From an uncultured Clostridia bacterium (GTDB taxonomy: Bacteria > CAYTYR01 > UBA6262): a DNA stretch of 64,000 nucleotides. How positions within the stretch are numbered: the first letter of the stretch is position 1; every line of letters starts with the position of its first letter. Under the pieces are notes generated by a model, which saw only the letters and a list, made by a program, of their open reading frames with translations, was not told where the DNA came from and made no database searches. Location: positions 130,754-194,753 of the forward strand of contig CAYTYR010000001.1 of the NCBI GenBank assembly GCA_964441745.1. Direction: 5' to 3'. Of this stretch, positions 5,560 to 64,000 are shown one piece after another. A program made the translations under genes and the position numbers.

Positions 5560-5906
5560 TTATTCACTCTATTACTACTATCCACGATAACAATCTGCGG
5601 CTTGATTGACCTTGCTTCATTATCCTGCGCCAGAGCATAGGAAAGAATACAAACTTTATCACCTACTTCTGCCTGCCGCGCCGCTGGGCCATACAGGGCA
5701 ATTGTTCCGCTATTTCCCTTTTCCGCAATGACATATGTCTCTAGGCGACTGCCATTATTACCATTGACTACTTGGACTTTTTCATTTTCTAAAATACCGC
5801 TTTTTGACAGAAGCGCTTTATCAATACCGATGCTTCCGGCATAATTTAACTCTTTCCTGGTAACTGTCGCATTATGGATTTTAGCCCTCAAAAGCTCTAT
5901 CATCAT
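5556..5906 (-). CDS. panD: Aspartate 1-decarboxylase (pyruvoyl-dependent)
   Basis: 116 aa. AKIHNATVT, the Gly-Ser self-cleavage site (YAGSIGID) and TYVI...GAAA-like segments align with PanD. Confidence 0.85.
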   Translation of the reverse strand: MMIELLRAKIHNATVTRKELNYAGSIGIDKALLSKSGILENEKVQVVNGNNGSRLETYVIAEKGNSGTIALYGPAARQAEVGDKVCILSYALAQDNEARSIKPQIVIVDSSNRVNK

Positions 5907-6701
5907 TTATTTGATAACCTTACCCCTTCTTTTTAATGTCTCCGCGTCGCTTATTGAATAAATATCCTGAATCTCTTTCTTATCATATACTGAAACTATA
6001 TTAACTTTTTTACAGGCAGCAGCAATCATATTTCTTATTTTCCTGATGCTTTCCTTAGATAACGGATTGACCGCGCAAACCCTTAATGGCGTATTTATCT
6101 GGACTTCATCAGGCTTGATCTGCTTGATCAGGCTGATCATCTTATCAACATCTTTCAGGTTTTTATTGACAAACATTATTTGCAACGCCAGCCACCCTTG
6201 ATACTGCTTGCTAAATTTCTTTATGCCGGATAACAATTTTACAAACCGTACAGCTTTTGCCGGATCATTGATCGCTTGCAAGGAATCAGGCGAGCCGGCA
6301 TCCAGCTTGACTGACACATAATCCGCTAGCAGTAATTCTTTCCTGACCTGACCAAGATGTAATAAGCTGGAGTTAGTTAAAACTGCCACCGGTGTTTTAG
6401 AAAGCGCTTTTACCGCTTTTATCGCCTGCCCCAGATTTTTGGCCAGAGTCGGCTCTCCACTCCCGGCAAAGGTAATATAATCAATAGGCGCCTCTGGCAA
6501 TGTTTTAATCTCCCGGAGAATCTCACTGACTGGGACATAGGTCTGCCTGGTAACCGTATAGCATAGCGTTGGCCCAAGCTGGCAATAAATACAGTTAAAA
6601 TCACAGATCTTTTCTTCCTGCGAAAGCAGATCTATTCCTAACGAACTACCCAGCCGCCAAGAAGCCACCGGGCCATAGATGTATTTATACTTTTTAGTCA
6701 T
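5907..6701 (-). CDS. Radical SAM protein (small, 264 aa)
   Basis: CDFNCIYCQ CX3CX2C motif near the N-terminus. Confidence 0.6.
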   Translation of the reverse strand: MTKKYKYIYGPVASWRLGSSLGIDLLSQEEKICDFNCIYCQLGPTLCYTVTRQTYVPVSEILREIKTLPEAPIDYITFAGSGEPTLAKNLGQAIKAVKALSKTPVAVLTNSSLLHLGQVRKELLLADYVSVKLDAGSPDSLQAINDPAKAVRFVKLLSGIKKFSKQYQGWLALQIMFVNKNLKDVDKMISLIKQIKPDEVQINTPLRVCAVNPLSKESIRKIRNMIAAACKKVNIVSVYDKKEIQDIYSISDAETLKRRGKVIK

Positions 6702-40520: not shown

Positions 40521-40592
40521 TATAACCTCTTTGTTTTGTTTAATCTGTGCCGCGCCCGCCGAAGCTTTAGTGGCGGGTAATCGTTTTAAAAA

Positions 40593-40683
40593 CGGAGAGG
40601 CTGGGATTCGAACCCAGGGTACAAGTTTTCACTCGTACAACCGCTTAGCAGGCGGCTGCCTTCAGCCACTCGGCCACCTCTCC
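40593..40683 (-). tRNA. tRNA-Ser (anticodon GCT), class II with long variable arm
   Basis: Acceptor GGAGAGG/CCTCTCC, D-arm GCCGAGTGGCTGAAGGC, anticodon loop CTGCTAA, long variable stem-loop, T-arm GGGTTCGAATCCC. 91 nt. Confidence 0.85.
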
Positions 40684-40710
40684 AATGCTCACTCGCTTCG
40701 TTCGCTCCGC

Positions 40711-50433: not shown

Positions 50434-51519
50434 TTATTTCTTTTTCTTTACATATTTTTTCTTAGGCTTTACGGACAGCGCTTTCATATTATCTTCAATC
50501 ATCTTTACGGTCTTATCAAAATCACTCTGTGTTTTATCTGAAAGTTTTATCTGATCAGCGTAAAACTTCTCATATTCTTTCTCAGCAAATTCTTTAGCTA
50601 TTTCATGCGATATCTTCCCGGCATGCGTCAAAATATCCCTTTCATTTAATGAAAGAAAACCATTCAATTTTGTTATCCAGTTTTTCATAGTCATTGGAAT
50701 ACGCCTCATTGCCTGGCCTTCAGCAAATATCAGGTATTGCTCTGCAAGATTATTAAGTTCAAGCAATTCCTTCTCATTAAGATAATTTTTTGCTGTTGTT
50801 ATGTCATGCTTACGAGGTTTGTCTCCGCGCCAATTAGTAAGCCCCATGTGAGGCTTTTGGTTGTCGGCTCTTTCATAAATAATTTCCGCGGCTGTCTTGC
50901 CCGTAATTGCCCAGTGCATTTTGTTCTGAACTGTTTTAAAAAAATCTATACTTATCTCAAGGGTTGGATCATAGTCGACACTTGTTGCATAAATATCTGT
51001 GATTTTCTGGTAAAAGCGACGTTCAGAAGTGCGTATATCCTGAATACGTCTAAGCAGTTCCTCAAAATAATCAAATGGATTATCAGGATTCTTAAGCCGT
51101 TCATCATCTAAAACAAAACCTTTTACTATATACTCACGCAACCTCTGTGTTGCCCATTGTCTGAACCGTGTGGCAATATGCGACTTTATTCTGTACCCTA
51201 CAGATATAATAACATCAAGATTATAAAAATCAATGCTTCTGGTAACCGTTCGGGTACCTTCGTTTTGAACTGTCAAGAATTTCTTGACAGTTGAATCCGG
51301 ATTAACTTCTTTTTCTTCGAAAATGTTTGAAATATGAAGGCTTATGTTCTGTTTAGTAGTCTGAAAAAGATCCGCCATTAGCTGCTGGCTAAGCCACACT
51401 GTTTCACCTTCAAACCGCACATCAATTTTTGTCTGCCCGTTTTCAGTCTGATAGATGATAATTTGAGATCTATCACGATTGTCGTTTCTTTCCTCCATCT
51501 CCACTCCTTTAAACCACAT
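50434..51519 (-). CDS. RhuM-family (virulence-protein RhuM/Fic-DOC-like) protein
   Basis: The IIIYQTENGQTKIDVRFEGETVWLSQ…RFRQWATQRLREYIVKGFVLDDERLK pattern is typical of RhuM. 361 aa; the true start is probably the internal Met at about 51498. Confidence 0.65.
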   Translation of the reverse strand: MWFKGVEMEERNDNRDRSQIIIYQTENGQTKIDVRFEGETVWLSQQLMADLFQTTKQNISLHISNIFEEKEVNPDSTVKKFLTVQNEGTRTVTRSIDFYNLDVIISVGYRIKSHIATRFRQWATQRLREYIVKGFVLDDERLKNPDNPFDYFEELLRRIQDIRTSERRFYQKITDIYATSVDYDPTLEISIDFFKTVQNKMHWAITGKTAAEIIYERADNQKPHMGLTNWRGDKPRKHDITTAKNYLNEKELLELNNLAEQYLIFAEGQAMRRIPMTMKNWITKLNGFLSLNERDILTHAGKISHEIAKEFAEKEYEKFYADQIKLSDKTQSDFDKTVKMIEDNMKALSVKPKKKYVKKKK

Positions 51520-51561
51520 ATTTTATTATAAATTCTGTACCTGTCTTAGGAAGCTATGGGA

Positions 51562-52509
51562 TCAGTTATCGAAATTAGCATTAAGCTTCTCTATCTCTTT
51601 CCTGAGCTGGCTGTCTTCTTGCATTTCCCGCTCTATGCTGCCCGCCGCCTTACTGGCTGCCGAGCAGCTGATACCAAATATCTTACCTATTTCTTCATTG
51701 TTTAAATTACTATACCTCTTTAGCAGATAGATCGCTACCTTTTTCTCTTTGATACGATACTTCTTCATCTTGCATGGCTCGGACATATTGATGCCATATT
51801 CCTGGCTGATCAAATCCATGATGTCTTTGACGTCTCTCGGTCCTTTTAGTTCCTCTTTATAGGAAAAATCTTTACTGGCTACCTTCTCTTTCAGAATCTT
51901 AAGCTTTTCCTTGATAAATGATGGTTCCCCTAAGATAAATCCGGCATAAATGCCTTTGAGCGGAGTGTCTTTATTCCCTATGCCTTCTGCTGCGTATTGA
52001 CGATATTGTTCAGTACCAATAGAAATAGCCTCTCTGATCTGTTTCTTATCTATGTATCCATCGCCATCTTTCTTTAAATACCCTTGATAGCTGGAATATT
52101 TAAAATCTTCCGGTTTCGGTACGATCTTAGCCCTGACCGGATTCAAGTGAATATACCTGGTCAGTTCCAATAGGTAGTTGTCCTTATCCACCAGGATAGA
52201 CTTGTATCTGCCCTGAAAAACATGTCCAGATTTATGACATTTGAGATTGTAATAGGTGGTATAGGAGGAATTCACATAGTGCATGATCTTGGAGAGATTG
52301 GGCTGGGTGGTTTCCAGCAGCAGATGGTAATGGTTATTCATCAAAACATACGCATACAGATAGAAGTTATACTTGGCTTTGGCATTAAGCAGATATTTAA
52401 GAAATTGCTGATAATCATAATCACTGACGAAGATCTTCTTCCGGTCATCGCCACGGCTGGTGATATGATAGCAGCAATTTTCGCCTTGTAATCGATACGG
52501 TCTGGCCAT
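51562..52509 (-). CDS. IS200/IS605-like Y1 (HuH) transposase fused to a C-terminal DnaA-domain-IV-like HTH (copy 1, intact)
   Basis: HuH motif NNHYHLLLE, catalytic Tyr region (YIHLNPVRA). C-terminal segment LKRYSNLNNEEIGKIFGISCSAASKAAGSIEREMQED resembles the DnaA C-terminal HTH. Confidence 0.7.
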   Translation of the reverse strand: MARPYRLQGENCCYHITSRGDDRKKIFVSDYDYQQFLKYLLNAKAKYNFYLYAYVLMNNHYHLLLETTQPNLSKIMHYVNSSYTTYYNLKCHKSGHVFQGRYKSILVDKDNYLLELTRYIHLNPVRAKIVPKPEDFKYSSYQGYLKKDGDGYIDKKQIREAISIGTEQYRQYAAEGIGNKDTPLKGIYAGFILGEPSFIKEKLKILKEKVASKDFSYKEELKGPRDVKDIMDLISQEYGINMSEPCKMKKYRIKEKKVAIYLLKRYSNLNNEEIGKIFGISCSAASKAAGSIEREMQEDSQLRKEIEKLNANFDN

Positions 52510-52797
52510 AGGTCATATTTTACTATCTTGCTTCTTCTTTGTCAATCTATTTCCCATTTCAAGGACTGACCCCGTTGTCTCCTTTGCCATTGTTATTCTC
52601 CAAATCTGCCCGCTTCCCGGTGGCCACAACTCCCTGCTGACGGCACCGTCTGAAGCCATTGCCACGGTATACTATTCAATATACCATTCCCGAAATTAGT
52701 ATACCGTTGCCTATTACCCTGTTTGTTACCTCATTCGGGGCGTTATTACCCTATTCGCGCCATTTTCTCGCACCACTGGTAAGAGAAATACCTTTTT

Positions 52798-53241
52798 CTA
52801 ATGGCGCTTATTATCGCGTTTATTATCACGTTTACCTGACTTATTATCAGGTTTAGACCTCTTGCGACACTTTAACGCCCCATTAGCATTACTCTGCCGC
52901 TGAGCCTTCTTAAATTCCTCATCAAGTTGCTCGATTTCCGCTAACAGATGCCGCTTTAGTAGCGTCCATTCATATTCGTTAAGTTTCATGCCCCGGCGTG
53001 TGTCATAATATTTTTTATTTAAAACCTTCGGGGCATTCTCAATCTTCATTAATCTGCCCTTCCAGAACACCAAATCATTCACATTGCCGTTGTGCAATTC
53101 CAAAGGTACCAGCCAGCCCCCTTTATAAAGCTTATCATCATAAGGGGTGGTGCTATTTAATTCTGCCAACTCCTTCTTGCTCATTCTATGCAACGGCTTC
53201 GCGCAATCATTGAGCCTAAGAAAAAATGTCGTCGTTCCCAT
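52798..53241 (-). CDS. Hypothetical protein with basic K/R/D-rich tail (147 aa)
   Basis: ORF only. Immediately downstream of abiEii. Confidence 0.35.
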   Translation of the reverse strand: MGTTTFFLRLNDCAKPLHRMSKKELAELNSTTPYDDKLYKGGWLVPLELHNGNVNDLVFWKGRLMKIENAPKVLNKKYYDTRRGMKLNEYEWTLLKRHLLAEIEQLDEEFKKAQRQSNANGALKCRKRSKPDNKSGKRDNKRDNKRH

Positions 53242-53244
53242 GAT

Positions 53245-54168
53245 TTAATCTTTCTTCGTTATAATTTTCTTTAACTGTCGAACCGCATGAGCATGCTTAT
53301 CGTCGCCCATCTTTGCAAGATTCGATAGCTTCCATTTAACCGCTGGCATATCTTGAGCGCCTTTAACGCCCAAAAGATCCCACTTCGGCGCTCTTTCTTT
53401 AAATGAGATCAAAAAAGCGCGTTCATCCTCTGTTATCCGTCTATTAATTTCCTCAACTAAGGTTTTTCTGACGCGCACTAATTCTTCATACTTCACGTCA
53501 AATGAAGCCATTCCCGCGAACTCTTTTTCAAAAACCGGTTTCATATCCTTGAAATTCGGCGATAACAGTTCCGAGATTGGACGATTATGGCTTATAAGAT
53601 AAACAAGGAACGATTTACGGACTTGTTCTGTAATCCCTTCGTTTCTAAGAAGCAACATGATGTCGAAGATATCCCGCGGATGTTGTCTGTCAAGTGCCGC
53701 GCATATCTTGGAACCGTAAAGCTCAGAAAATGCCAGTGTCTTTGTAGACACGAATTTTTCAAAAACCTCCTCAGCCTTTTTGCAAAGATCTCTTTCCTCG
53801 GGCCCGAATAAAGACCCTCGAATAACATTATTCGGTTCGACTTTAACGATAGCATTTTGCTTTTTAACATAAAGTTTGGAAATAAATCCTTTTGCAGAAT
53901 CCGCTTTCTCCTCTATCAACACGGAAGGCATACTCGAAGAAATGCGTTTCGCTATCGACTTTAGCTGATCGCTGATAGCTTTGATCGTTTCCTTTCGGGA
54001 ACTAAGGCGCAAATAAGTCAGATCGATATCAACGGAAAGGCGCGGCATGTCACGCACGAAAAAATTGATCGCCGTTCCGCCATGTAAAGCGAAATCAGTG
54101 TCCGTGGTCATATACGGGAGTATGGAGATGAGAAGCTCGGCCTGCTGATAGAATAAATTCTTATTCAT
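53245..54168 (-). CDS. abiEii: AbiEii/AbiGii-family nucleotidyltransferase toxin (type IV TA / abortive infection)
   Basis: FALHGGTAINFF…SVDIDL (NTase GS…D.D signature of DUF1814/AbiEii); 307 aa. Confidence 0.75.
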   Translation of the reverse strand: MNKNLFYQQAELLISILPYMTTDTDFALHGGTAINFFVRDMPRLSVDIDLTYLRLSSRKETIKAISDQLKSIAKRISSSMPSVLIEEKADSAKGFISKLYVKKQNAIVKVEPNNVIRGSLFGPEERDLCKKAEEVFEKFVSTKTLAFSELYGSKICAALDRQHPRDIFDIMLLLRNEGITEQVRKSFLVYLISHNRPISELLSPNFKDMKPVFEKEFAGMASFDVKYEELVRVRKTLVEEINRRITEDERAFLISFKERAPKWDLLGVKGAQDMPAVKWKLSNLAKMGDDKHAHAVRQLKKIITKKD

Positions 54169-54177
54169 AATCTCCTG

Positions 54178-54942
54178 TTATTTGGGAACGACTATTTTAT
54201 ACTTGCTGTCATAATGGCCATTATTGCAAAGAGACCTCTTCCCTGTTCCAAAATTAACCTTTTCAAGATTCAATTTCTTGACCCACGCATGATTATTCTT
54301 CTCGGCTAAGTACATGAATAGCCTTTTCGTCTTAACAGAGCCGCATTTTTCTAAAAGCTCTTGAACCATGCTCGGGCGAAGCGTCGTGAGGCCGGACATT
54401 ATCTGATCCAGTTCATCAAAGGATTCTCTTAGCGGAACGTTGTAGCATAATTCTATAACGGCTCTTTCTGCCGAGGATATCTTGATCTCATAGTTCCCTG
54501 AATTATATGTTGTAAGCCCCTGCCCGGTCTCATCTCCAAAAAGTCCAGTCATCACATATCGCACATCAACTTCCCATTTGTAGTTTTTAAACCATTCAGG
54601 AAGCTTTTCGTTTTTGGCTCCAAAAAGGATAATCTTTGCTTGTTTAAAATTTGCCGGAAGATAATGCGCGCTGCCCAATAATTGAAGAGCAGTCTTTCCC
54701 GCAGGATGAACGGACATATTTAACTGCGTTTGCAATGTATACAGCCCGCCATTCCAGTCGACATTTTCTCCGGCCCGCTTAAAAGCTCCTTGCCCTATCC
54801 GTTCTATCCAACCGCTCTTAACATATGTTCCGGCTAATTGGCGATACACACCCTGCCCTTCGAGCCAAGTGGATACAGCAACGGTATTTTTAGGCCAGCT
54901 TCTAAGTAAATTGTTTATTATACTTCCATTTTGTCTATCCAT
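54178..54942 (-). CDS. abiEi: AbiEi-family antitoxin/transcriptional regulator
   Basis: The N-terminal domain with GQGAFKR and the C-terminal domain match AbiEi. Positioned immediately upstream of abiEii with a 9-bp gap. Confidence 0.7.
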   Translation of the reverse strand: MDRQNGSIINNLLRSWPKNTVAVSTWLEGQGVYRQLAGTYVKSGWIERIGQGAFKRAGENVDWNGGLYTLQTQLNMSVHPAGKTALQLLGSAHYLPANFKQAKIILFGAKNEKLPEWFKNYKWEVDVRYVMTGLFGDETGQGLTTYNSGNYEIKISSAERAVIELCYNVPLRESFDELDQIMSGLTTLRPSMVQELLEKCGSVKTKRLFMYLAEKNNHAWVKKLNLEKVNFGTGKRSLCNNGHYDSKYKIVVPK

Positions 54943-55080
54943 AATAGTCTGTTTAGCACAATTTTAAACCAATGTCAAGCATTTTCACTTACTGTAGCGT
55001 AGTTTGGAATACTGCCAATATGTAAACAATAACTTGTCATTCAAGACATATTCTAAACCTCTATGTAGATAGCGTTTACC

Positions 55081-55108
55081 GTCTGTCGCAAAAACTATGT
55101 TCTTTTTG
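55081..55108 (-). terminator. Hairpin terminator (GTCGCAAAAA-ctatgttc-TTTTTGCGAC) downstream of the 90-aa gene
   Basis: Perfect 10-bp inverted repeat seen in sequence. Confidence 0.45.
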
Positions 55109-55171
55109 CGACAAGCGGCGGAACTGCACTATGAAATAAGACAGTTGTTCTATGGGATAGAACAGGCGGGA

Positions 55172-55444
55172 TTACAGGACGGATTCTTGGAGCTTGCCGG
55201 TCGTGGCGTCCACAATCCGGAAGTGAGTTTTGCCGGTGCGGCCTCTCCACTGCTCTTCGATATTCAGGCTCCAGTCGCCCAGAGGCATGACTTTCTGGAT
55301 CTCCCGCAGGCGAAGCTTGCCAGCCGGGACCGCGCCCACAAGATCGCCCTCGCTGGAGATGTTTTCCACGTAAACTTCCTCACCAGCCAGCCGGACGCTG
55401 ATGTAGCGGGTTTTCTTAACCGCTTGATCAATAACTCGTGCCAT
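55172..55444 (-). CDS. Hypothetical 90-aa protein encoded by a conspicuously GC-rich patch
   Basis: GGGAGG SD. The local GC is visibly higher than the flanking AT-rich DNA. Confidence 0.4.
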   Translation of the reverse strand: MARVIDQAVKKTRYISVRLAGEEVYVENISSEGDLVGAVPAGKLRLREIQKVMPLGDWSLNIEEQWRGRTGKTHFRIVDATTGKLQESVL

Positions 55445-55587
55445 ACGCCTACCTCCCTTTTGAGGTCAAGTAGGCCATAGGTTCAAGCGGTTGGCAAGGA
55501 ATTATTCCACCACTTTGCTCACCGCAGCGCTCGAAATATTAAAATATTTACCTATTTCAATATTGCTGAGCGCTGTCACTCTTTTCA

Positions 55588-56373
55588 TTAAATATATTGC
55601 GACATTTCTCTCTTTGGAAGTCTATTCTTCAATTGCCTCAATTCTTCCAGCTCTTTCCCATATTCCTGGGCTATAACCCCAGCTATTTCTTCTATCCCTA
55701 TATCTCCGACTATTTCCCGCTGATCTGCATAATCGCCGCCTGCTGCCTGCTCTTTCAGTTCCTTCAGCTTTTCTTTAATGAACTTTGTCCGGCCTAATAT
55801 AAACCCGCCATATACTTCCTTGAATGGATCTGCTTTATGATTTATTCCTTCTTCGTTAAATTCACGATAACTCATTGTGTCTAGGAATATCACCTGGCTG
55901 ATCTGCGCCTTGTCTATATATCCGTCTCCTTCTTTTGTGAGATACCCCTTATAGCTAGACCACTTGTATTCTTCTGGCTTTTTAGCCATCCCGGCCCTGA
56001 CCGGATTCAAGTGAATATACCTGGTCAGTTCCAATAGGTAGTTGTCCTTATCCACCAGGATAGACTTGTATCTGCCCTGAAAAACATGTCCAGATTTATG
56101 ACATTTGAGATTGTAATAGGTGGTATAGGAGGAATTCACATAGTGCATGATCTTGGAGAGATTGGGCTGGGTGGTTTCCAGCAGCAGATGGTAATGGTTA
56201 TTCATCAAAACATACGCATACAGATAGAAGTTATACTTGGCTTTGGCATTAAGCAGATATTTAAGAAATTGCTGATAATCATAATCACTGACGAAGATCT
56301 TCTTCCGGTCATCGCCACGGCTGGTGATATGATAGCAGCAATTTTCGCCTTGTAATCGATACGGTCTGGCCAT
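55588..56373 (-). pseudogene. IS200-like Y1 transposase/DnaA-HTH fusion, copy 2 (frameshifted: HTH now in another frame at about 55500-55585)
   Basis: The first 128 codons plus 70 bp of 5' flank are identical to copy 1 (52129-52575 vs 55995-56441). The DnaA-like HTH (MKRVTALSNIEIGKYFNISSAAVSK) is out of frame downstream. Confidence 0.6.
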
Positions 56374-56511
56374 AGGTCATATTTTACTATCTTGCTTCTT
56401 CTTTGTCAATCTATTTCCCATTTCAAGGACTGACCCCGTTGATTTTATTCTGGGGATTTAATTCTCATTTATTCAAGATTATTAAAAGCTAATAGAAATT
56501 ATATCTTGAAT

Positions 56512-56640
56512 CTATTTATTTCTTTTTTTAATAACTTCTACTACTGCCGTGCTTGGACGCTGCCGAGCTTTTTCCACAGGGATGAACTCGCCGGTTTTTG
56601 CATCACGGCCAATTTTAAATCCTTTTGTCTTATTAGACAT
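56512..56640 (-). CDS. 42-aa protein MSNKTKGFKIGRDAKTGEFIPVEKARQRPSTAVVEVIKKRNK
   Basis: My own translation; AAAGGAG SD 7 nt upstream. Not in the ORF track (below the length cut). Confidence 0.45.
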   Translation of the reverse strand: MSNKTKGFKIGRDAKTGEFIPVEKARQRPSTAVVEVIKKRNK

Positions 56641-56711
56641 AAATAAGCTCCTTTCATAGTATTTTGATTCATAGTTTGTCTTATGAACCAAAGTTTTGTT
56701 GATTAAATAAT

Positions 56712-57203
56712 TTAAATCTTCTCCACAAATCGTTTCAAAATTGCTTGCGTAATATAAGGATTCTTTTCCGCTATTTTATTTGCAATTGTTATAGCCTCTC
56801 TGCTTACCAGATATCCTTTTTCAACGAGTAATTTCATTAAATTTAAACCCCAAATAGTTTCTATTCCGATTTTATTACACTCAGTAATAAGCTTTTTATC
56901 ACTGCTAATACACGGACAGTTCTTATCACGAGATAGTATAAAACATAATCTATCTTGAAAAGATAGAGGGCCACTTCTCTTAGAAGCTTCTTGTAATTGA
57001 TTCAAGCTCGGCTCAACAGTCACCAGGCCTAAGCTTTCTGCTTGACCCGGTAATATCTGCTGAACCTCTTGAAGAGTAGCTTTTGACACGTAGATTTGTA
57101 AGCAGTGCTTTGAAAATAACTTCAGGATCTTGGGTTCCGTTAGTATATAGTCAATCAATACACTGGCATCACAAATGACTCCCTTTACTGAAGAATCTGC
57201 CAT
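56712..57203 (-). CDS. PIN-domain protein (DUF4411-like)
   Basis: GVICDASVLIDY N-terminal acidic motif of PIN nucleases. Overlaps the upstream XRE-ImmA gene by 19 nt. Confidence 0.55.
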   Translation of the reverse strand: MADSSVKGVICDASVLIDYILTEPKILKLFSKHCLQIYVSKATLQEVQQILPGQAESLGLVTVEPSLNQLQEASKRSGPLSFQDRLCFILSRDKNCPCISSDKKLITECNKIGIETIWGLNLMKLLVEKGYLVSREAITIANKIAEKNPYITQAILKRFVEKI

Positions 57204-60423: not shown

Positions 60424-61338
60424 CTATTTTGGGAAGCAAAGTTCCCGGTAATTGCAGAAACCACATATTTTCATATTACTGGTCGTAGCAAATTCCTTTT
60501 TCTCTTTCGGGATATTCTGCTCGATGCTTTTAAGCGCTGCGTACATCTCTCCGGTTTCCGTTTTGACCGTATCGCTGAATGCCTTAATATCCGACACACT
60601 AACCTTTATTGAAATCTCCGAATACTTCGGTAGGAGATAGGCTGTCCCAGGGAATATCCTTGCCGGCTCCTTGCTAAAATTGTTTGCTGCCCAGGTAGAG
60701 TAGCCGATAAGCTGTTTTGAATGCTTTTTCTCATCAGGTTTGCCTGTTTTCCAATCAAGTATGAATATATCGCCGTCAACAGGGAAAAGGAAATCCACTT
60801 TGCAGTAGGCTTTCATACCGTCTATCCTGGTTTCGCCATATCCCGGAGGCTCTATTATCCAGCCTGTTTTGTTTGTTATAGCTTTTTCAATTATCCAACG
60901 AAACCTGTCACTTCCGATGAAGTTATTAAGTCCCATCTTCACGTTTTCATAGATCCAGTCAGTATCAATGTTCTTAAGCTGTTTGTAATAGACCTCGGCA
61001 AAAGTTTTGGCACCGCAGTATTCATCCGTTTTCTTTCGCGCGTAATCTAAGAATCTTTCACTGTCGACCGGCTCCTCGCTTTTCAAAAGTCTTTCCAAGA
61101 ATGCCTTTATAGTATCGTGGATGATATTGCCTGTCTCAAGGGCCGTCGAAGTCATAGATTTTAAAGCGTTAATCTTTGAGCGCGGGCACTCAGTATCGTA
61201 TTTTCCGTAATAGTCGAAATAATACTGCCTCCGGCACAGTTTGAACTTGTCGTAACGCGACAATGACCAGCCCAGTATATCCGAGTAATCGTAGCGTTTG
61301 ATGTTATTTAGTTTCTCGTTCATTTTTTTTGCTCCCAT
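60424..61338 (-). CDS. PD-(D/E)XK nuclease with Cas4-like Cys4 (Fe-S) arrangement
   Basis: RIDGMKAYCKVDFLF…ILDWKTGK (D…D/E.K), one N-terminal Cys and a C-terminal CGFCNYRELC. Confidence 0.65.
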   Translation of the reverse strand: MGAKKMNEKLNNIKRYDYSDILGWSLSRYDKFKLCRRQYYFDYYGKYDTECPRSKINALKSMTSTALETGNIIHDTIKAFLERLLKSEEPVDSERFLDYARKKTDEYCGAKTFAEVYYKQLKNIDTDWIYENVKMGLNNFIGSDRFRWIIEKAITNKTGWIIEPPGYGETRIDGMKAYCKVDFLFPVDGDIFILDWKTGKPDEKKHSKQLIGYSTWAANNFSKEPARIFPGTAYLLPKYSEISIKVSVSDIKAFSDTVKTETGEMYAALKSIEQNIPKEKKEFATTSNMKICGFCNYRELCFPK

Positions 61339-61488
61339 TTTCTCTTAATATCCCTATTACAAATACTCCCTTTTTATAAGTTCCTTCTTATAAATATACA
61401 GTATCTTTAGCAGTTATGACAAGCAACTTGCTTTATTACTTTCTTCAGCTAATTTTCAGACAAATTCCCGTTTCAGTGCCTGACCCCG

Positions 61489-61650
61489 TTGTTTTCCTGA
61501 TGAATATTTTCTTCCGGTCATCGCCACGGCTGGTGATATGATAGCAGCAATTTTCGCCTTGTAATCGATACGGTCTGGCCATAGGTCATATTTTACTATC
61601 TTGCTTCTTCTTTGTCAATCTATTTCCCATTTCAAGGACTGACCCCGTTG
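61489..61650 (-). mobile_element. Miniature remnant of the Y1-transposase element (first ~36 codons + 5' flank only), bounded by CTGACCCCGTTG on both sides
   Basis: 61507-61650 is identical to 52437-52575 and 56301-56441. Confidence 0.6.
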
Positions 61651-61690
61651 TCTCTGTTTCATGACCCCGTTGTCTCTGACTGACCCCGTT
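61636..61690. repeat. Three tandem GACCCCGTTGTCTCT units (REP-like)
   Basis: CTGACCCCGTTGTCTCTG-TTTCAT-GACCCCGTTGTCTCTGACT-GACCCCGTTGTCTCTG seen in sequence. A related pair GAACCCGTTACTTCT / GACCCCGTTACTTCC lies at 46908-46938. Confidence 0.6.
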
Positions 61691-62510
61691 GTCTCTGAAG
61701 TAAAGTGAGACATTGGGTTGCTCTTACCGAAGCTTCGTAAAAGGACCCTTCCTTTTCCAAATAATCTTTGAATTCCTTAAGCTTCGAGATTAATACTTTC
61801 TTATTATTTCTGGCTTTAATAACAGCTTCAGAAGCATTGTCATTTTGGGTTAATAGTAACACGCCTTTGACTGGCAAATCAATACTAGCAAAATGGTAAT
61901 GATTGACTAACTTGATAGCTCCAAGAAGGGCCAGCTCTTCCCTTGCTTCAGGAGAAGCTCTAATTCCAATTTTCTCTTGAAAAAGCATTGCAACTCGATC
62001 CTGTAGGAATACCAATCGCTCATAAGGCTCATGACAGTCCCTATGCTGTAGAGTCCCATCCCCCTCTTGAAATGGAAAAGAGTCACTCATTGCCTCAAGC
62101 ACTAAGTTAAGTGCAAAAATACAATCTTGATCTAAGAAAAGTTGATGATCGGAATATACTTTCTTAAGTTTATCATATTCCCCGGAAGGTACCGGTTCAT
62201 TCATCCATCCTTCATCCGGATCGTATCCTACCTCAGACCACCTTCTCTTAGTTTCAGCTATATGGCTAAGAATTGAGGCAAAAGCTAACCGTTGATGGTC
62301 AAAAAATAGCGATGTTCGAAGCTGATGAAGTTGGCGCTCATATAAAGCCGCTTGCATATTAGCATTCAATTCTGCTTTATATGCTTCTAGCCTTTGTGCA
62401 TACTCATGCTTTATACTCTCACGTATGCGTTCGGAAATCCAATGGCGAAAGAGCCAGACAATTATAGCGCCAGAAAGACCGCCTGATACTATATTGAGCA
62501 TTAATTCCAT
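61691..62510 (-). CDS. Membrane-anchored hypothetical protein (N-terminal TM helix + roughly 250-aa cytoplasmic domain)
   Basis: MELMLNIVSGGLSGAIIVWLF TM segment. The start at 62510 avoids a low-complexity extension, and the 3' end is uncertain because the ORF runs into the repeat array. Confidence 0.4.
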
Positions 62511-63794: not shown

Positions 63795-64000
63795 TATTCA
63801 CCTGGGTCAGGATCATAATGATCTTCGTTCCAGGCATCAAGTTCATCAGAACGATCATAAAATGACTCTATCCCTGCCAACTTAAGTTCTTCAATATCAT
63901 TTAATCTTAAACCACATTCTCCACACATAAACCCATCGGCAAAGAAATCGAGTGATATATCAGGCGATTCATCATGGCCTTCAACATGAACATCAGTATA
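63795..64000 (-). CDS. 3' end of an ORF running off the window (…FMCGECGLRLNDIEELKLAGIESFYDRSDELDAWNEDHYDPDPGEYF)
   Basis: Open frame to the window edge; stop at 63795-63797. Confidence 0.3.

Follow-up and report, generated by a model that had tools for sequence, protein, structure and literature searches.

TIRYTs are RAYT-like genes flanked by terminal inverted repeats (TIRs), not by REP palindromes, and the units that they form with these repeats, for which a common motif, GGGGWSAS, has been described, were named TIRtrons (Di Nocera, De Gregorio & Rocco, 2013, PMC3733652). Among the TnpA_REP proteins, subclass 2.1 houses the TIRYTs, and members of its subgroup 2.1.2 have a Bac_DnaA_C-like C-terminal domain with no REP nearby, the C-terminal helix-turn-helix (HTH) extensions of this subgroup being of the Bac_DnaA_C, HTH_23 or HTH_28 type (Quentin et al., 2018, PMC6006769). 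Neither paper reports biochemical or genetic proof of TIRYT mobility or of TIR cleavage (PMC3733652, PMC6006769). The subject here is a stretch of 64,000 nucleotides from an uncultured Clostridia bacterium (assembly GCA_964441745.1, contig CAYTYR010000001.1, positions 130,754 to 194,753), hereafter the window, in which two co-oriented TIRYT genes bracket an AbiE abortive-infection pair and two smaller genes. The two TIRYT genes share a perfectly identical 5' block of 448 bp, and the second is a chimera of two TIRYT lineages, an arrangement that an earlier note on this DNA had likened to a composite transposon and that is probably better explained by recombination between independent elements.

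Both genes belong to the TIRYT class, that is, to TnpA_REP subclass 2.1.2. Copy 1, of the lineage called type 1 (51562-52509, minus strand, as are all TIRYT and cargo features given below), is an intact open reading frame (ORF) of 315 aa, whose product combines a Y1/HUH catalytic domain with a DnaA-like HTH at the C-terminus. It matched Pfam Y1_Tnp with 49.8 bits and NCBIfam REP_Tyr_transpos with 81.3 bits (cutoff 80); its match to Bac_DnaA_C was weak (22.8 bits, under the Pfam cutoff of 31.5), and its C-terminal region matched the TIGR00362 DnaA model with 35 bits. Copy 2 (55588-56373), a chimeric pseudogene of 261 aa, gave 51.5 bits against Y1_Tnp and 84.3 bits against REP_Tyr_transpos. The earlier naming of a Y1 transposase with a DnaA-like HTH was correct. 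The residues H60, H62 and Y119, invariant in a 25-member alignment, are present in copies 1 and 2. More than 5,400 homologues were found in databases, nearly all of ~315 aa with both domains and most carrying a precomputed PF08299 match, and their hosts are mostly uncultured Omnitrophota, Thermodesulfobacteriota, Nitrospirota and Brocadiales. The lineage nearest to copy 1 is that of proteins P0002/P0003, with 78-80% identity; a scan of GTDB representatives gave relatives no closer than 45-52% identity, and a sequence search of the PDB with copy 1 gave no match at E<=0.01.

Self-comparison of the window at an offset of 3,864 bp, position by position and by blastn, revealed a direct repeat of 448 bp with 100% identity, in which arm A (52130-52577) and arm B (55994-56441) form a single unbroken run of identical bases. 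The self-alignment defines the exact boundaries of the identical 5' segment that the earlier note had reported in two co-oriented copies; the repeat is real and its edges are sharp, and only the length of 447 bp given there has to be changed. On the coding strand each arm holds 68 nt before the ATG and 380 nt of coding sequence (codons 1 to ~127), and it spans the entire Y1 catalytic domain, H60/H62 and Y119 included. The sequence before the ATG, previously called a 5' flank, does lie inside the identical block, but, far from being arbitrary, it consists of the left terminus of the element itself and its promoter. Just past the inner edge, identity drops immediately to 55-70% per 50-nt window, the remaining 3' parts of the two genes being 58.7% identical in nucleotide sequence and their C-terminal halves 45% identical in amino acids. 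This edge directly follows the conserved catalytic-tyrosine motif RYIHLNPVRA, past which type 1 and the second lineage, type 2, are 55-59% similar and too divergent for recombination.

In copy 2, the type-1 5' block of arm B, with codons 1-127 equal to those of copy 1, sits on a gene whose codons 128-261 are of the type-2 lineage. With P0021/P0020/P0014/P0015 the C-terminal part shares 77-83% identity, with copy 1 only 45%; the corresponding half of copy 1 is 73-76% identical to P0002/P0003. Relatives with DNA for a lineage test numbered one of each type, namely locus L091 (P0003) for type 1 and locus L077 (P0014) for type 2. The nucleotide identity of the 448-bp block was 84.1% with L091 vs 75.0% with L077, and that of the leader alone, which is the leader of copy 1, was 86.6% vs 51.5%. 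For the 3' part of copy 1 the values were 80.2% and 58.8%, and for the 3' part of copy 2 they were reversed, 54.7% and 82.0%. The N-terminal protein sequence, with 83-88% identity to both lineages, is uninformative on the donor lineage, which is assigned to type 1 because the leader and TIR nucleotides settle it. Since its 5' block is of type 1 but its 3' half is of type 2, copy 2 is a chimera, consisting of a type-1 left end and catalytic domain placed on a type-2 body.

Copy 2 was also confirmed to be frameshifted, with its HTH out of frame, as had been noticed before. Alignment with a relative placed a 1-nt deletion that breaks the frame near 55620, and the remnant of the DnaA-like HTH (~55503-55615) was recovered by tblastn at 55514-55615, in another frame, against residues 254-287 of copy 1. 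The earlier note did not contain the 3' truncation: homology ends at ~55503, with the last ~35 codons and the right TIR gone, and the truncation point adjoins a GC-rich block bearing a 90-aa gene. Unequal crossing-over between tandem type-2 and type-1 elements was considered as the origin of the chimera and rejected, the duplicated spacer that it predicts being absent.

The terminal architecture of the family was assessed by a motif-free test, in which the 150 nt before each gene and its 3' end were searched for the best inverted repeat that they form with each other, and this repeat was compared with shuffles. In 36 of 42 relatives an inverted repeat of 19-34 nt beat every shuffle, with a left arm starting 47-77 nt before the ATG and a right arm that overlaps or closely trails the stop codon. 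The left motif of the window genes starts 64 nt before the ATG, within this range, and the motif GGGGTCAG, contained in CAACGGGGTCAG, fits the GGGGWSAS consensus exactly. The left end of L091, GGCAATGGGGTCAGTCCTTGAAATGGGAAATAGATTGACAAAGAAGAAGCA, is nearly the window leader and has a perfect 32-nt inverted partner across the stop codon, and L077 has a perfect TIR of 30 nt, AAGCAACGGGGTCAGGCACTGAATCGTGAA; CAACGGGGTCAGTCCTTGAAATGGG would serve as a search sequence for type 1 and CAACGGGGTCAGGCACTGAA for type 2. A left TIR core with GGGGTCAG is present at all three TIRYT copies of the window (the third is a stub described below), and copy 2 and the stub are without a right end.

The left end and leader of copy 1 (52510-52577), delimited by motif search and promoter scan, comprise the left TIR core CAACGGGGTCAG with its GGGGWSAS motif (52566-52577) and, between the TIR and the ATG, the best promoter-like site of the region, TTGACA-17-TAAAAT (52517-52545), with 11/12 matches. 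At the other end of the gene there is a vestigial right TIR (51552-51582), recognized by alignment to the right TIR of L091, and the TGA stop codon of copy 1 sits within CTGATCCC, one mismatch from CTGACCCC. Read by hand from the alignment, this end agrees with the perfect right TIR of L091 at 22/31 positions; compared with the reverse-complemented left TIR of copy 1 itself, it gave only ~20/31 by hand count. In the de novo inverted-repeat test it was below detection, scoring 6 where the null maximum was 8. Either the right end of copy 1 is decaying, or its 5' block was received from a master copy elsewhere. A RhuM-family gene (50434-51519, minus strand; PADLOC PDC-S05, 483 bits) begins 43 nt past the copy 1 stop codon, and the same succession of a TIRYT gene and a RhuM gene was seen in L039 (7132-8172), a distant deltaproteobacterial relative, which may be chance.

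The window also holds a third copy and six sites of the short repeat CAACGGGGTCA, features that are absent from the earlier note. All six sites, against an expected 0.39, are on the minus strand: each of the three copies has one at its outer edge, two more lie in tandem upstream of the third copy, and one directly follows it. Within the 64 kb this short repeat occurs at TIRYT ends only and always on one strand. The third copy is a type-1 stub of 158 bp (61497-61654) that shares 98% identity with copies 1 and 2 and retains a left TIR, a leader and 28 initial codons; its first ~146 nt, counted from CAAC, are identical, and its last 12 nt contain 3 mismatches. Just upstream there is a tandem array of three TIR cores (CAGAGACAACGGGGTCA; 61640-61700, with motif matches at 61640, 61662 and 61681), which is resembled by a doublet in L077, where AAGCAACGGGGTCA occurs twice (1412-1445) ahead of the element. 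A solo type-2 left TIR (CAACGGGGTCAGGCACTGAAACGGGAA; 61455-61495, with the motif at 61481), which matches the 30-nt TIR of L077, abuts the truncation point of the stub. After this solo TIR, in the place where a TIRYT gene would be expected, there is a gene for a PD-(D/E)XK/Cas4-like nuclease (60424-61338, minus strand).

Comparable partial copies were found in relatives. In L038 (2156-2460) and L044 (1-320), from two other genomes, a full-length copy has a truncated TIRYT gene immediately against its left TIR, which suggests that TIRYT elements insert into, or recombine with, one another. A second copy or fragment is present in only 4 of 79 TIRYT loci and a cargo-bracketing pair in only one of them, L077. 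There, two co-oriented Y1/DnaA_C genes surround a small cargo; they belong to different subfamilies and have separate TIR pairs. The second of these two elements shows a 277-bp tandem duplication (5652-5928 and 5937-6213, 95.7% identical) that consists of its 3' end with the HTH and the right TIR, that is, a partial duplication anchored at the element end.

In AbiE systems, AbiEi autoregulates its operon by repression and neutralises AbiEii, a toxin of the nucleotidyltransferase type that stops growth when the cell is infected. The AbiEi antitoxin/regulator gene of the window (54178-54942) matched Pfam AbiEi_3_N with 98.8 bits and AbiEi_3 with 173.2 bits, and its PADLOC model over the full length with 280.7 bits; the gene of the AbiEii nucleotidyltransferase toxin (53245-54168) matched Pfam AbiEii with 109.8 bits and PADLOC with 376.6 bits, at positions 3-289 of 290. 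These matches over full models bear out the names that both genes had been given. The genes lie 9 nt apart on one strand, both full length, and by analogy with known AbiE systems the AbiEi protein is presumed to repress the operon and to neutralise AbiEii. Upstream of AbiEi there is a conserved region (54943-55060), a probable promoter/operator with a sharp outer boundary: on this side of the module, DNA homology to many independent metagenome loci halts at 55041-55066. The homology ends sharply at ~55060 (118 nt upstream of AbiEi) and at ~53250, and the AbiE pair is therefore a discrete module of ~1.8 kb. The comparison set comprised 50 loci, obtained by scanning metagenome contigs with AbiEii (39-95% identity by best segment), and AbiEi and AbiEii were paired in every locus long enough to show both.

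The cargo genes as a whole are those described before (AbiEi, AbiEii, a 147-aa gene and a GC-rich 90-aa gene), and the cargo measures ~2.9-3.0 kb, not 3.1 kb. It is a mosaic of a 90-aa gene in a foreign block, the AbiE module and the 147-aa gene. The last of these (52798-53241) encodes a small basic protein with 210 homologues of ~125 aa that span ~80% of the ORF and are devoid of Pfam domains, and its true start is probably ~20 codons further in. Among the 50 AbiE loci, the family follows AbiEii in 4, and it trails AbiEi/AbiEii in the window and in L093; elsewhere it is found after an MNT-HEPN pair (L080-L085) or before Fic genes, and the family loci compared also included L086-L090. The family is associated with defence islands and, judging from these gene neighbourhoods, could be an unrecognised accessory gene of nucleotidyltransferase-type toxin-antitoxin modules. 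As an obligate third AbiE component it was rejected, given its position after AbiEii in only 4 of the 50 loci and its presence with other toxin-antitoxin pairs.

The GC-rich block (55097-55480; 57-61% GC vs ~40% around it) is foreign-looking and abuts the truncation of copy 2. Its 90-aa gene (55172-55444) has 40 homologues of ~85-100 aa, the best of them 94% identical, and no match in Pfam, NCBIfam or PADLOC; a ribosome-binding site and a terminator-like hairpin can be read in the block. The high GC content probably accounts for an ORF of 127 aa on the opposite strand of the block. A spacer of 220 nt (52578-52797), which separates the 147-aa gene from the TIR of copy 1, contains the palindromes GGTATATTGAATAGTATACC and GACGGTGCCGTC and repeated GGTAAYA motifs. 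No Rfam match at E<=1 was obtained over 51400-56800, this spacer included, and at the gathering threshold the whole window gave just three tRNAs, located elsewhere.

The earlier note had taken the bracket for a unit similar to a composite transposon, an interpretation that is not supported. Copy 2 is frameshifted, 3'-truncated and without a right end, the right TIR of copy 1 has decayed, and TIRYT mobility has never been shown (PMC3733652, PMC6006769). The bracket does not recur in the 50 AbiE loci, of which only 2 have a TIRYT-like gene within 5 kb of AbiE (one upstream on the same strand, the other a fragment on the other strand) and none has one on both sides. Plasmids and phages had been named as places where the same cassette might be met, and no second copy of the unit turned up there: a plasmid search by blastn in distant mode returned just ~90-bp matches to a conserved AbiEii motif, and there was no match in the phage collection or, by protein and TIR-pattern search, in viral contigs. 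A related idea would be a compound TIRtron, which among Y1-type elements would correspond to a composite transposon: the copy-1 protein would move a 4.9-kb unit that reaches from the left TIR of copy 2 to the right end of copy 1 and carries AbiE together with the 147-aa and 90-aa genes. The ends are indeed oriented as in one element (left TIR at 56430-56441, right-end remnant at 51552-51582), the copy 1 ORF is intact with its HUH and Tyr residues, and L077 also has two co-oriented Y1/DnaA_C genes around a small cargo. However, the elements of L077 are of different subfamilies with a TIR pair each, the right TIR of the window unit has decayed (~20/31 vs the left by hand count, with failure in the de novo test), and plasmids, phages and viral contigs hold no second copy. 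AbiE modules elsewhere are without TIRYT flanks, a cargo-bracketing pair is found in only 1 of 79 TIRYT loci, and TIRYT transposition has never been demonstrated (PMC3733652, PMC6006769), so that a compound TIRtron is considered highly improbable. The explanation that is probably right, starting from what is shown, namely how the locus is built, to which lineages its TIRYT parts belong, that copy 2 is chimeric, that AbiE is intact and that the bracket does not recur, is that independent TIRYT elements gathered in a defence island adjacent to a tRNA-Ser gene and that recombination made their 5' ends identical. Two TIRYT lineages would have settled independently in the island, and type-1 sequence would have replaced, via homologous recombination or gene conversion, 448 bp of the type-2 element, copy 2, comprising the left end, the promoter and the entire catalytic domain. 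Then, or earlier, copy 2 would have lost its frame (1 nt) and its 3' end beside the GC-rich insertion; copy 1 would have kept an intact gene and left end while its right TIR decayed, and the AbiE pair, a separate and intact module of ~1.8 kb, would stand between the TIRYT copies by happenstance. The order of these events and the recombination mechanism are inferred, as are all protein activities. This account is in line with the very recent gene conversion that had been offered to explain the perfect identity, since the lineage comparison shows copy 2 to be a chimera. The 448-bp direct repeats are, from general knowledge, a plausible substrate for a predicted RecA-mediated deletion of the 3,864-bp unit with loss of the cassette, as had been proposed.

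Several points weigh against independent elements made alike by ordinary recombination. The leaders of type 1 and type 2 share only ~52% identity beyond the 12-nt TIR core, and ordinary conversion must therefore reach the exact terminus with very little homology, which favours some role for TIR cleavage. The donor of the block need not be copy 1, because the two TIRs of copy 1 have ceased to match, and all three copies may come from a master copy elsewhere. A RhuM gene follows the TIRYT gene both here and in L039, so the neighbourhood is not necessarily all accidental, and the structure is taken from an assembled contig. An alternative is TIR-initiated end-anchored copying, in which the TIRYT nuclease would nick the outer edge of the left TIR (CAAC...) and a type-1 template would be copied inward for a variable distance, giving tandem TIR cores and nested copies from one terminus, with lengths of 448 bp for copy 2 and ~146 bp for the stub. 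In spite of leaders that are only ~52% homologous between types, the three identity tracts start at the same TIR-core nucleotide; identity in the stub runs ~146 nt inward from the terminus and gives way to 3 mismatches in the last 12 nt; and tandem TIR cores occur both here (three, CAGAGACAACGGGGTCA) and in L077 (two). Moreover, a truncated TIRYT abuts the left TIR of another element in the window, L038 and L044, and the 277-bp duplication of L077 is anchored at a 3' end. However, the sample is small, the stub can be explained equally by deletions, and conversion tracts stop where homology stops, so that an edge at the terminus is expected without any nuclease; end-anchored patterns also fit passive homology-limited conversion with deletions. 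It is thus rather unlikely that copying of this kind took place, and equally doubtful, judging from the sequence patterns, that the nested left-end copies are footprints of in vivo nicking by the TIRYT nuclease at the GGGGTCAG TIR, followed by one-ended copying from a sister element. An assembly artefact, with the 448-bp arms produced by paralogue collapse or polishing, or with a misresolved repeat that in truth consists of one TIRYT copy and a 3,864-bp circle, is quite improbable. The contig does come from an uncultured, metagenome-assembled genome, short reads have difficulty bridging exact repeats this long, and, as a matter of logic only, the alternative path through the repeat is exactly the deletion product and the circle. 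Nevertheless, a 98% identical copy only 5 kb away was kept distinct by the assembler, and, given 75-79% identity between the relatives, a pure type-2 5' end would have only short exact words in common with type 1, so a mis-join in the assembly graph that creates the chimera is unlikely. The junction of the chimera is also in frame and at the last stretch of good homology, as real recombination predicts. Recombination between independent elements thus remains the probable explanation.

The surroundings are those of a variable island of defence, mobile and toxin-antitoxin-type genes, which extends past tRNA-Ser(GCT) (40592-40684) through position 64000 and is preceded by the housekeeping genes dnaX and pyruvate:ferredoxin oxidoreductase. 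It includes a DUF4143 ATPase, DUF4062/HATPase_c_4, IS110, IS21 istA/istB, RhuM, AbiE and PIN-like genes, together with HTH-M78 (RmrA-like), DUF2779/Cas4-like, DSPc phosphatase, PD-(D/E)XK nuclease and TIR-domain (ThsB-like) genes. A specific association of TIRYT genes with defence islands was rejected: among 132 ORFs that neighbour TIRYT genes in 34 other genomes, most are housekeeping genes and few have defence matches, with response regulators, ferredoxins, NrfD, phosphate transport and purine synthesis as typical neighbours.

Both components of the locus are already known, AbiE as a well-known defence module and TIRYTs from descriptions in 2013 and 2018, and the finding as it stands matters little. 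Its value is mainly corrective, in that a presumed 5' flank is an element terminus, one transposase copy is a chimera and the reading as a composite transposon finds no support; the chimeric, end-anchored pattern adds a small new detail on a poorly studied element class. If end-anchored copying were true, it would be the first evidence of activity in these domesticated-looking Y1/DnaA-HTH proteins and would mean that they reshape the defence islands around them, and the window together with L038, L044 and L077, with their end-anchored partial copies and tandem TIR cores, is an inexpensive place to seek TIRYT activity. The 448-bp repeats also predict an on/off polymorphism, in which deletion would drop the 3,864-bp segment with AbiE and leave one intact type-1 TIRYT gene.

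The locus can be compared with several known systems. The adjacent, co-oriented and full-length AbiEi_3 regulator/antitoxin and AbiEii toxin are like those of the type IV toxin-antitoxin/abortive infection system, and nothing structural sets the pair apart, the trailing 147-aa ORF found here and in 4 of 50 relatives being outside the described system. With composite transposons such as Tn5 and Tn10 the locus has in common two co-oriented transposase-like genes around a cargo with a defence module; however, the flanking units are not DDE insertion sequences, one is a one-ended truncated pseudogene and the other has a decayed end, and there is no evidence of movement of the unit and no target-site duplication. 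IS200/IS605 elements share the HUH/Y1 fold family (Pfam Y1_Tnp), but the NCBIfam transpos_IS200 model gave 16.9 bits (cutoff 55), there is no tnpB, and the ends are inverted repeats instead of subterminal single-stranded DNA hairpins. No such hairpins above shuffles were detected at the element ends (z-scores of 0.21 and 0.93), and this lack of single-stranded folding distinguishes the ends from those of IS200/IS605 and from REPs. RAYTs and their REPtrons are approached by the catalytic domain, which scores barely above the REP_Tyr_transpos cutoff (81.3 and 84.3 vs 80 bits). They differ in that the window genes have no flanking REP palindromes, the short repeat being neither self-complementary nor able to fold, in that the window proteins are about twice as long and have an HTH domain, and in that several copies or fragments lie within 10 kb instead of the usual single domesticated copy. 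The TIRYT/TIRtron papers describe no chimeric elements, left-end-anchored identity tracts or tandem TIR cores beside truncated genes, and the window is unlike a TIRtron in that the TIRs of copy 1 are no longer complementary and copy 2 is a cross-lineage chimera and pseudogene. The locus resembles a TIRtron in its HUH/Y1 RAYT-like domain with a C-terminal Bac_DnaA_C-like HTH, in a left GGGGWSAS repeat (GGGGTCAG) at the family-typical distance without REP palindromes, and in solo and clustered TIR cores such as occur in some TIR families.

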